Source: Escherichia coli (GTDB lineage Bacteria > Pseudomonadota > Gammaproteobacteria > Enterobacterales > Enterobacteriaceae). Taken from it: DNA of 64,000 bases. Position numbers and translations under genes: made by a program. The stretch lies in NCBI RefSeq assembly GCF_044324875.1, contig NZ_CP172185.1; one strand, given 5' to 3'. The notes beneath the pieces are model-generated. The model saw nothing but the letters and a program-made list of their open reading frames with translations, was not told the origin of the DNA and made no database searches. Positions 33,798 to 39,879 of the stretch are shown here, in pieces (position 1 is the first letter of the stretch; every line of letters starts with the position of its first letter).

Positions 33798-34202
<405 letters not shown>

Positions 34203-34528
34203 TGGCTTCTGATAATTCGATTGACCGTTGGCGGATGCGGCGCGAATGCCTTGTCCGCCCCACAACGCACCACAATCGTAGGCCTGAGAAGACGCAACAG
34301 CGTCGCATCGGGCAATCAGCTTCAAACAGTGCCACTCAAAACGTCAAATTACTTTCACCTAAAATACCCTTATCACCTGATATACAGTGAATACCTTACC
34401 TGGCGCGAATTTCTTTGAATAACGGCCTACCGACCCGCTTATTTGCGCATCTTTTGTCTCGATATACATTTTCTGACATCCTCATCCGCTATGCTACAGG
34501 CACTAAAAATGGTTATTGAGGAGCAAAT

Positions 34529-35188
34529 ATGGCTAACTGGTTAAATCAACTGCAATCCTTGCTTGGGCAAAGCAGTTCTTCTGCCTCCTCGTCTGCGGAT
34601 CAGGGATTGGGCAAACTTTTAGTGCCAGGCGCATTAGGCGGACTGGCTGGGCTGCTGGTCGCAAATAAATCAGCACGTAAACTTCTTACGAAATATGGCA
34701 CCAACGCGTTACTGGTTGGCGGCGGAGCGGTCGCGGGTACGGTGCTGTGGAATAAATACAAAGATAAAATTCGCGCGGCGCATCAGGACGAACCGCAGTT
34801 TGGCGCGCAAAGTACGCCGCTGGATGAGCGTACGGAACGTTTGATCCTTGCGCTGGTCTTTGCCGCTAAAAGTGATGGTCATATTGATGCCAAAGAACGT
34901 GCGGCAATCGATCAGCAATTGCGTGAAGCCGGTGTGGAAGAACAGGGGCGTGTACTCATTGAGCAGGCAATCGAACAACCGCTGGATCCACAACGCCTGG
35001 CTACCGGGATTCGCAATGAAGAAGAGGCGCTGGAAATCTATTTCCTGAGCTGCGCGGCTATTGATATTGACCATTTTATGGAACGCAGTTACCTGAATGC
35101 ACTGGGTGACGCGCTGAAAATCCCCCAGGATGTTCGTGACGGCATTGAACGCGATCTCGAACAGCAAAAACGTACTTTGGCGGAATAA
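34529..35188 (+). CDS. yebE: Inner membrane protein YebE (DUF533)
   Basis: 219-aa [44 protein letters not shown]... Confidence 0.85.
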
Positions 35189-35351
35189 TTCCGCTCTCAG
35201 GATAGCCTGAAGTTGACTATTTCGGGCTATCCAGAACCGCACAGCCATTTGAACAGGCTGATTTTCTCTGTCTGCATAACATTCGATATCCGCGCCATTA
35301 CCTGTCATCATGTGACTGCTCCCCGCCCTGTCGGGCAAGGCTTCCCACTTC

Positions 35352-36521
35352 TTAAGCCGCAACCGTCTGTGCTACGGATTTATGCTGGCCTCCATGGGCA
35401 GAAACGACGAGTCCCGCCGCTTGTAATTCCAGTATGCCCTTGCGTTTGATGTTGAGCGCCGCGTTGATATCGCGGTCATGTTCAACTCCACACTCTGGAC
35501 ACTGCCAGATGCGCTTATGTAATGGCATCTCCGACATTTTGTGACCGCAGCAGTGGCAGGTTTTCGAACTGGCGAACCATTGATCCAGTTTCACCAGATG
35601 CACACCTTTCTCTGTTGCTTTGTATTCCAGTTTTGTGATGAATCCAGACCATCCAGCATCGCCTATCGCACGAGCCAGATGGTGATTTTTCATCATATTT
35701 GCCGTTTTCAATGTCTCGACAATTACCGCTTGGTTTTCGTCAACAATTGCGCGAGATAACTTGTGCTGGAAATCGGCACGGGCACTGGCTACCCGTTCGT
35801 GAACGGCTGCAAGTTGTATTCTGGCTTTGCGCCTGTTTGCGTTCCCTTTTTTCTTACGGGACAGTGCTTTCTGCTTCCGGCGAAGGTTGCGACTTGCATT
35901 GATTAGGTGGCGGGGACTGGCAATTTTATTGCCGTCCGATTTGATGACAAAATGCGCCAGCCCCATATCCAGCCCTGTCACATTTGATATCAGTGCAGGC
36001 TTTGCCGGCGCTTCCATCCCGTCGTCACAAAGTAACGACGCGTAGTATTTCCCGGTTGCGCTGCGGCTCAACGTGATACTTTTCAGCATTCCCGTAATTT
36101 CACGATGTAAACGCGCTTCAATCGGCAAGATTTTCGGTATTTTTATCGCACCATCAAGGACTTTTATGCCAACACAATGATAGCTCGATTGTCTGCCGTG
36201 TTTACTTTTAAAGGTAGGTTTACCTGCTTTCAGTTTCGGATTGAAAAAGTTAGAAAAAGCCACGTCGAGGTTAATTACCGCCTGCTGCAACGCAATAGAA
36301 TCATATTCTTTAAGCCATCCATACCGGCGGGATTTCTTCGCCACTGCAAGCAGTGGTTTGAGGTCTTTACGCGGGTTTAAATTTACGCGGTGCCGCTGGT
36401 AAGAATGTTTCTTGATATGCAGAGCTTTGTTGTACGCAAAACGCACTGCACCGAACTGGGCGTTGATAAATTCAGCCTGTTCTGGTGTCGGGTAGATGCG
36501 TACTTTTGTTGCTCTTAACAT
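35352..36521 (-). CDS. tnpB: TnpB (OrfB_IS605) RuvC-like putative RNA-guided nuclease
   Basis: 389-aa ORF; RuvC-like motifs TGLDMGLAHF, AVIVETLK and EHDRDINAALNI plus zinc finger CHCCGHK...CPECG; architecture typical of IS605/IS607 TnpB. Confidence 0.85.
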   Translation of the reverse strand: MLRATKVRIYPTPEQAEFINAQFGAVRFAYNKALHIKKHSYQRHRVNLNPRKDLKPLLAVAKKSRRYGWLKEYDSIALQQAVINLDVAFSNFFNPKLKAGKPTFKSKHGRQSSYHCVGIKVLDGAIKIPKILPIEARLHREITGMLKSITLSRSATGKYYASLLCDDGMEAPAKPALISNVTGLDMGLAHFVIKSDGNKIASPRHLINASRNLRRKQKALSRKKKGNANRRKARIQLAAVHERVASARADFQHKLSRAIVDENQAVIVETLKTANMMKNHHLARAIGDAGWSGFITKLEYKATEKGVHLVKLDQWFASSKTCHCCGHKMSEMPLHKRIWQCPECGVEHDRDINAALNIKRKGILELQAAGLVVSAHGGQHKSVAQTVAA

Positions 36522-36577
36522 AATCAGCGCTCATTGATATAATGCTTTTATTTTAACACTTTAGGTAAATATATCAA

Positions 36578-37003
36578 TTGAGTAATCATGATGATTTACT
36601 GGCGGGATTTCTCCGCAAACGACACAGTGTCAGTAAGCTGGTTGTGCACCTTATTTTTACGACAAAGTATCGACGCAAACTATTCGACAGTCAGATGATC
36701 GCTCAGTTGCGTGAGGCTTTTGGCTCCGCTGCGGCAAAGCTTGAATGCGAAATTATTGAGATGGACGGGGAGCCAGACCATGTACACCTGCTGGTTGCCT
36801 ACCCGCCAAAACTGGCGGTCAGTGTGATGGTCAATAATTTAAAATCGGTATCATCACGTTTGCTACGCCAGCAGAACGCGCATTTACGTATGCAGAGTAA
36901 AACGGGGCTTTTGTGGTCGAGATCGTACTTTGTCTGTAGCACCGGAGAGGCAACGATTGAAACGCTCAGAGCCTACGTTCAGAGTCAGTCAACACCTGAT
37001 TGA
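36578..37003 (+). CDS. tnpA: IS200/IS605-family Y1 (HuH) transposase TnpA
   Basis: 141-aa ORF with HuH motif HVHLLV and C-terminal Tyr region SRSYFVCSTGEATIE; ORF-track first codon is TTG and no in-frame ATG precedes the conserved N-terminus. Confidence 0.75.
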   Translation: MSNHDDLLAGFLRKRHSVSKLVVHLIFTTKYRRKLFDSQMIAQLREAFGSAAAKLECEIIEMDGEPDHVHLLVAYPPKLAVSVMVNNLKSVSSRLLRQQNAHLRMQSKTGLLWSRSYFVCSTGEATIETLRAYVQSQSTPD

Positions 37004-37132
37004 TCTTTAAAGCCCTGCGGGCTTTTCGCCTTATATCCCCGCCCGCATTGGGCGAGGGTTTACGGCGTTTTTCGCTAAGCAATGACTACCCTGTTTCGCT
37101 TGCATCTCCGGTGAGTTTTGCCACCCTTATAA

Positions 37133-39879
<2,747 letters not shown>

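Follow-up and report, generated by a model that had tools for sequence, protein, structure and literature searches.

The question raised by the yebE-ptrB interval of this Escherichia coli genome, which lies within the 64,000-nucleotide stretch of DNA that was analysed (hereafter the window), is whether the extra DNA between the two genes is an intact mobile element, possibly with a working RNA-guided nuclease, or a decayed relic. An earlier note that was made from the sequence alone had placed an IS605-type element there at 35300-37080, described as about 1.8 kb of non-core DNA, and had taken K-12 to have no IS at this position. The alignment with the K-12 interval bore this out and sharpened it: K-12 does not have the sequence and carries an empty site, and the window has a scarless insertion of 1763 bp at 35312-37074. 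The alignment with the K-12 spacer stops at 35311|35312 and resumes at 37074|37075 with no duplicated, common or ambiguous junction bases, which means that the initial span was right to within 12 bp. In the ORF listing, the host neighbours are yebE (34529-35188) and ptrB (37160-39220), with both ORFs of the insertion in between. The same 1763 bp, with its ends unchanged, recurs at other loci, and it is on these identical ends and the clean K-12 breakpoints that the delimitation of the whole copy (35312-37074, minus strand) is based.

The best explanation of the whole is, with high probability, that it is a full-length copy of ISEc46, a member of the IS200/IS605 family with divergent tnpA and tnpB genes, whose mechanism would follow by homology with IS608 and ISDra2. 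The divergent order of tnpA and tnpB is the IS605 layout. The characteristics of the family were found together in this element, namely a Y1 transposase, direct subterminal hairpins without terminal inverted repeats (a repeat search detected none between the two element ends) and insertion 3' of a fixed tetranucleotide without duplication. The identity with ISEc46 is supported by proxies that agree with one another, namely the name assigned by RefSeq PGAP to copies 99.2-99.9% identical, the length of TnpB, the TTAG/TCAC pair of cleavage sites and the abundance reported in the supplement of PMC9956272. The RefSeq product on these copies is 'IS200/IS605-like element ISEc46 family transposase', and the partner gene is named 'RNA-guided endonuclease InsQ/TnpB'. 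A survey of elements with TnpB from 2023 (PMC9956272) assigns ISEc46 to subgroup IS605c in its supplement, with a TnpB of 389 aa and the cleavage sites TTAG/TCAC, and gives 196 copies for it, spread over 191 of 2467 E. coli genomes, about one each.

The orientation of the element was determined from its flanks. Read on the tnpB-sense strand, TTAG, which is usually part of YTTAG, adjoins the tnpA-side end at seven independent insertion sites, while the flank beside the tnpB-side end differs at every site compared (the window, L003, L004 and the viral-contig relatives L007, L011, L012 and L013-16). Because the flank on the tnpB side differs from site to site and TTAG is constant on the tnpA side, the active ('top') strand is the minus strand of the window, i.e., the tnpB-sense strand, with 37074 as the left end and 35312 as the right end. 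The target TTAG (37075-37078 on the minus strand, CTAA on the plus strand) lies outside the IS; according to the seven sites and the supplement of PMC9956272, it is the left TnpA cleavage site, and it is also the predicted TAM of TnpB. Two empty sites, the yebE-ptrB interval and yfaX of K-12, were aligned and showed no target duplication at either.

Both ends carry the structures that are expected of the family. The left end (37037-37074, minus strand), which occurs once in the window and is conserved in relatives including derivatives that lack tnpA, starts on the top strand with the 16 nt CGAAAAACGCCGTAAA, which contain the presumed guide tetranucleotide, and continues with the imperfect palindrome IP_L at 37037-37058, CCC(T)CGCCC-AATGC-GGGCGGGG. 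When folded as DNA, the 80-nt left end reached -19.4 kcal/mol (z = -3.7). The right end (35312-35340, minus strand) contains IP_R at 35321-35340, which reads CCT[T]GCCC-GACA-GGGCGGGG on the top strand (left arm CCTCGCCC) and is followed by 9 nt. The right cleavage site TCAC, which is also given in the supplement of PMC9956272, corresponds to 35312-35315, and across the sites compared the right end always closes with GTCAC. In addition to folding, the IP_R hairpin is supported by compensatory changes in relatives, in which a C-G pair became G-C in L011 and A-U in L018. On the minus strand, IP_L and IP_R share CC(C)TCGCCC...GGGCGGGG, in agreement with the similar imperfect palindromes in direct orientation that had been noticed near both ends. 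In the L008-10 lineage, TCAG replaces TTAG, and the sequence immediately 5' of the left hairpin reads GAGAAC in place of GTAAAC. The left end of this lineage is thus a natural variant with joint alterations of the target and of the presumed guide bases, and this joint change is consistent with a guide-based choice of target as in IS608.

Profile searches placed both proteins in the families that had been proposed for them, a divergently encoded TnpA-like Y1 HuH transposase of 141 aa and a TnpB-like protein of 389 aa, and thus upheld the IS200/IS605-type placement. The tnpA gene (36578-37003, plus strand) has a TTG start, and its product matched the full model of Pfam Y1_Tnp (1-121/121, E = 6e-39) and NCBIfam transpos_IS200 with 141.8 bits against a cut-off of 55. 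The alignment with the TnpA of IS608 (E = 5e-19, to IS608 residues 10-132) showed that the catalytic residues are conserved: H68 and H70 form the HUH motif, and Y133 is the catalytic tyrosine in Y133-x3-Q137. In PMC9956272, the Y1 protein of ISEc46 was described as N-terminally truncated and listed as 102 aa, which is the count from M40, i.e., that of an annotation with an ATG start. The TTG at 36578 is the earliest start codon following an in-frame stop, and the ORF that begins there spans the full Pfam domain. Compared with a relative that is 87% identical, the first 39 codons differ by roughly twelve synonymous substitutions and a single amino-acid replacement; since these changes are almost only synonymous, the upstream part is translated and the protein is complete. 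Judged by its codons, the ISEc46 transposase is not N-terminally truncated and begins at TTG, which corrects the description in PMC9956272.

A perfect 7-bp hairpin, AAAGCCC-TGC-GGGCTTT, was found by folding right after the tnpA stop (37009-37025, plus strand) and is retained in the relatives L008-L016. It may be the tnpA terminator and/or a part of the 73-bp left end that is kept by the tnpA-less derivatives. A simple terminator scan did not flag this hairpin because of its weak T run. Between the two genes, a consensus scan of the 56-bp tnpB-tnpA spacer (36515-36577, both strands) gave back-to-back sigma-70-like candidate promoters, TTAACA-17-TATAAT towards tnpA on the plus strand (11/12 consensus) and TTGATA-16-TAAAAT towards tnpB on the minus strand (10/12 consensus), both of which are consensus matches only.

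The tnpB gene (35352-36521, minus strand) encodes a homologue of the RNA-guided nucleases, as was determined by profiles and by alignment with the TnpB of ISDra2. The Pfam domains HTH_OrfB_IS605, OrfB_IS605 and Cas12f1-like_TNB were present, the NCBIfam guided_TnpB model scored 339.7 bits against a cut-off of 100, and the solved ISDra2 TnpB was matched over residues 4-380 with E = 9e-74. The three RuvC motifs that the earlier note had named correspond to D185, E269 and D351, which stand opposite D191, E278 and D361 of ISDra2 TnpB; both CxxC pairs of the C-terminal zinc finger that it had also pointed out (C322/C325/C341/C344) align as well. In ISDra2 TnpB, D191 is needed for cleavage (PMC8612924). 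All 15 of the tnpB copies examined are 1170 nt long and undisrupted, and dN/dS was 0.06-0.07 against relatives that are 81-87% identical and 0.15-0.3 among near-identical copies. By this measure, TnpB is under strong purifying selection. In the assay of PMC10055086, HpyTnpB from IS608 showed no activity, which means that intact motifs are no guarantee of it; an active ISEc46 TnpB is plausible but cannot be taken for granted.

The RNA partner of this protein is probably encoded where the 3' end of tnpB adjoins the right end of the element. The 3' part of the predicted omega RNA scaffold (35312-35446, minus strand) overlaps with the final ~95 nt of tnpB and extends over the right end, with conserved helices that span 35315-35433. 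The RNAalifold consensus of the last ~120 nt of 11 sequences consisted of 38 pairs in six helices with 98% of cells paired, and compensatory changes were found in 10 of the 38 pairs. None of 500 shuffles matched the observed values, and sliding the partners lowered the pairing from 98% to 39-52%. The evidence that this conserved 3' structure represents the omega RNA scaffold is good but not conclusive because a single distant relative, L018, contributes most of the covariation. An Rfam scan of 34000-38000 (E <= 1) found no family within the element. The same scan gave sub-threshold naRNA4/REP-like matches upstream of yebE only. In ISDra2, the last ~16 nt of the reRNA derive from the flank (PMC8612924), and on this model the DNA flanking the right end at 35296-35311 (minus strand) would supply a 16-nt guide, 5'-AUGAUGACAGGUAAUG-3'. 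In the alignment, the empty K-12 allele has TTAG followed directly by ATGATGACAGGTAATG, and the predicted guide AUGAUGACAGGUAAUG would thus equal the sequence after TTAG in that allele. The suggestion that this may be a working OMEGA-type unit and not a relic is therefore supported by the intact catalytic residues, the dN/dS of ~0.06, the conserved 3' RNA structure and a predicted guide that matches the empty allele after TTAG, and it is as a prediction that we retain it.

The copy in the window differs from its nearest genome at three positions across 2051 bp, and these private substitutions all fall within 37 bp (35337-35373). Among complete E. coli genomes, the best match to the 89-bp variant stretch was 96.6%, and the three substitutions were shared by none. 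The first, 35337 G>A, lies in IP_R, where it changes a C-G pair to T·G and weakens the DNA hairpin from -8.4 to -6.1 kcal/mol. The other two, 35372-35373 TG>CT, lead to T383A in TnpB and break the closing pair of a conserved RNA stem, which is weakened from -6.8 to -3.1 kcal/mol. The loss of stability in these two stems counts against a functional unit in this particular copy. The three changes may be genuine features of the strain or may stem from errors of the assembly; if genuine, such a right-end variant may affect mobility.

A search for presence or absence among complete E. coli genomes, which used a 140-bp junction query and demanded a full match, found the left junction at yebE-ptrB in 400 of 5426 genomes (~7%), including strain 042. 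A count of 448 occupied genomes from a whole-region search was rejected, as the IS makes up 86% of that query, and was replaced by the junction recount. The interval was empty in about 5,000 of the 5,410 genomes that have the locus. Full-length ISEc46 was present in 455 genomes; among the genomes with any match, the median was one place. Relative to the copy in the window, those at yebE-ptrB show up to 13 differences in 1763 bases (up to 0.7%), which indicates that the insertion is not recent. The family occupies at least seven sites on chromosomes, plasmids and phage contigs, among them the regulator gene yfaX (L003, a clean insertion compared with K-12) and an integrase remnant beside tRNA-Arg/yfdC (L004); derivatives without tnpA but with a conserved TnpB exist on phage-plasmids. 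An IS-adjacent deletion in L003 was considered and rejected, since the rhmD deletion is 327 bp off and unrelated to the junction. An 18-nt inverted repeat was also observed between the yebE-side flank (35251-35268) and the 5' part of tnpB (36465-36482), and was treated as a chance match with a BLAST expectation of 0.11 in a 2.4-kb comparison.

With the work on IS608 (PMC3201880), ISDra2 (PMC8612924) and the Geobacillus elements (PMC10055086) as precedents, the following mechanism can be proposed. By homology with IS608, TnpA would bind both hairpins on the single-stranded top strand and would locate TTAG on the left and TCAC on the right via a short stretch of guide bases that lies 5' of each hairpin; in IS608, four such bases recognise the cleavage sites (PMC3201880). 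In this 'peel and paste' scheme, it would then excise the strand as a circle and insert that circle 3' of another TTAG. Transcription across the 3' end of tnpB and on through the right end would yield the omega RNA, the last ~16 nt of which, AUGAUGACAGGUAAUG, would come from the yebE-side flank. TnpB and the omega RNA may then cut the empty allele TTAG-ATGATGACAGGTAATG, as it is regenerated by excision and carried by K-12, and recombinational repair from the sister copy would restore ISEc46 at the cut allele. Excision of such elements is disfavoured when the active strand sits on the leading-strand template (PMC5027513). Given the strands of the genes in K-12 and a location in the left replichore, we infer that the top strand of the window copy belongs to the template of the leading strand, hence to the disfavoured orientation, which fits a rarely moving copy. 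Regarding replication-strand bias, one of the three chromosomal sites fits the expectation of a lagging-strand template, and no consistent orientation emerged.

A further extension of this mechanism, which we regard as rather unlikely, is that the insertion behaves as a selfish allele locked to its locus: it would be excised rarely, and TnpB with its omega RNA would target the empty yebE-ptrB allele that ~92% of E. coli carry, so that an empty allele that enters the cell, or one that is left by a rare excision, would be cut and converted back. If true, this would help to explain the persistence of one insertion across 400 genomes, and the three private substitutions would be a natural loss-of-function or tuning variant of the system. 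A less active role is somewhat easier to envisage, although we still doubt it: the element could be structurally intact but functionally frozen, a vertically inherited and practically immobile passenger whose TnpA, TnpB and omega RNA have ceased to act at this locus and in which the right-end mutations are the first signs of decay. Such a passenger would be compatible with the median of one place per carrier genome and the single site common to 400 genomes, with the divergence of up to 0.7% among same-site copies, which suggests long residence, with the weakening of IP_R and of one RNA stem by the clustered substitutions, and with the inferred leading-strand placement that would disfavour excision. 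However, both ORFs are full length with all of the catalytic residues, dN/dS is 0.15-0.3 even among near-identical copies and 0.06 at a greater distance, the weakened IP_R hairpin still forms via the T·G pair, and the family has clearly moved, being found at no fewer than seven sites that include chromosomes, plasmids and phage contigs.

That same spread over several TTAG sites, as is typical for a transposon, also bears on whether TnpB has been domesticated as a regulator or a defence factor (TldR-like or Cas12-like) and is no longer a transposon part. This is very improbable: weak NCBIfam similarities to C2c8/Cas12f2 lie far under their cut-offs, and the tnpA-less derivatives with a conserved TnpB on phage-plasmids point in this direction, but the protein has kept its RuvC triad, the element retains a complete tnpA as well as its two transposon ends, no CRISPR array lies in the vicinity, and the guide is not fixed but differs at every site. 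Finally, the presence/absence polymorphism in itself would also arise if the 1.76 kb were ancestral and had been deleted in K-12. We find this scarcely credible, as the breakpoints coincide with the exact ends of the element at unrelated loci, about 5,000 of the 5,410 genomes with the locus are empty, and the empty allele corresponds exactly to the TTAG donor joint. The reading as a full-length ISEc46 that was inserted at TTAG is the one that we retain.

The finding is real and was correctly read: it is a known IS that, by its sequence, would work like its well-studied relatives. The element, its family, its target site and its general mechanism have all been published already, and there is little significance beyond a correct annotation and a modest practical value. 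In the literature that was searched, no data on the expression, excision or cleavage of ISEc46 were found, and, by their titles and abstracts, the 23 papers that name it seem mostly to list it in genome surveys. The practical value lies in boundaries that are exact to the base and in a predicted TAM (TTAG) and guide for a TnpB that is native to E. coli, as well as in the corrected TTG start of the ISEc46 transposase, the natural left-end variant with TCAG and the strain-specific variant of the right end. The empty-site target is present in most laboratory strains, which makes retention or interference easily testable in the natural host.

In comparison with known systems, the window element and the published ISEc46 are alike in the TnpB of 389 aa, the TTAG/TCAC sites, the length of ~1.77 kb, the occurrence of about one copy per genome and the presence in 7-8% of E. 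coli; the two do not differ in kind, and what sets the window copy apart is its three private substitutions in the right end/omega RNA region. With IS608/IS605 of H. pylori (PDB 2a6m, 2vjv), it shares a Y1/HUH TnpA, direct subterminal imperfect hairpins and the lack of a target duplication. The geometry is the same: the left cleavage site, which is outside the element, lies 16 nt 5' of IP_L compared with 19 nt 5' of the left hairpin for TTAC of IS608, and the right cleavage site, which is inside, lies 9 nt 3' of IP_R compared with 10 nt 3' of the right hairpin for TCAA of IS608 (PMC3201880). The two elements differ in their target (TTAG here, TTAC in IS608), in their right site (TCAC here, TCAA in IS608) and in the left guide, which is presumed to be AAAC (or TAAA) here and is AAAG in IS608. 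Compared with ISDra2 (PDB 8exa, 8h1j; PMC8612924), the catalytic triad and the zinc finger of TnpB are conserved. As in ISDra2, a structured RNA that reaches from the tnpB 3' end into the right end is predicted for ISEc46, its guide would be derived from the flank, and the TAM is expected to be the same as the TnpA target. The predicted TAM is TTAG here and TTGAT in ISDra2, and tnpA, which is divergent here, is co-directional and overlapping in ISDra2.

Derivatives of about 1.34 kb that lack tnpA were found on viral contigs (L008-L010 and L013-L016) and on E. coli plasmids with P1-like genes (L022 and L023). In these derivatives, the region upstream of tnpB is fused directly to the 73-bp left end, the right end is kept, and the 389-aa TnpB is intact, with a dN/dS of about 0.06. 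One insertion site, whose right-end flank is AAACTGACCATTAAAG, is common to L013-L016 and L023; it is located on phage-plasmids, where it adjoins either lytic-replication/Icd-like genes or methylase genes. In the L008-L010 lineage, the flanking target TTAG is replaced by TCAG and, on the 5' side of the left hairpin, GTAAAC has become GAGAAC, a new combination of target and guide that mirrors TCAC with GAAG, the pair at the right end of the element itself. Two further plasmid-borne relatives are decayed, unlike the intact chromosomal copies. In L021 (plasmid p24AR0180A), tnpB is frameshifted and tnpA is truncated next to a gene for an IS91 transposase, and in L024 (a plasmid of strain ET979), tnpB is truncated by IS1B near hokD.

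The window copy of ISEc46 has three private substitutions, at 35337 and 35372-35373, which fall within 37 bp in the right end/omega RNA region. They were found in none of the 471 E. coli genomes that have this stretch, and they may be either real or an assembly error. The start codon of tnpA is a TTG at window position 36578; the published 102-aa "truncated" Y1 transposase of ISEc46 looks like an annotation artefact that results from a start at an internal ATG (M40). Between yebF and yebE, two minus-strand matches to the Rfam family naRNA4 were observed at 34184-34260 (29.4 bits) and 34281-34332 (26.3 bits), both below the gathering score of 59.5; these stretches look like palindromic repeats of the REP/BIME type.

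Compared with K-12, strain S163-2, which carries ISEc46 in yfaX (L003), has a 1.7-kb deletion to the left of the IS that removed rhmD and part of yfaX. This deletion is 327 bp away from the right end of ISEc46 and not at the IS junction. The window copy (35312-37074) corresponds to approximately 1.93 Mb in K-12 coordinates, in the left replichore, and we infer that its active strand is on the leading-strand template, an orientation in which the excision of IS200/IS605 elements is reportedly disfavoured (PMC5027513). The yfaX copy has the opposite orientation, i.e., the favoured one.
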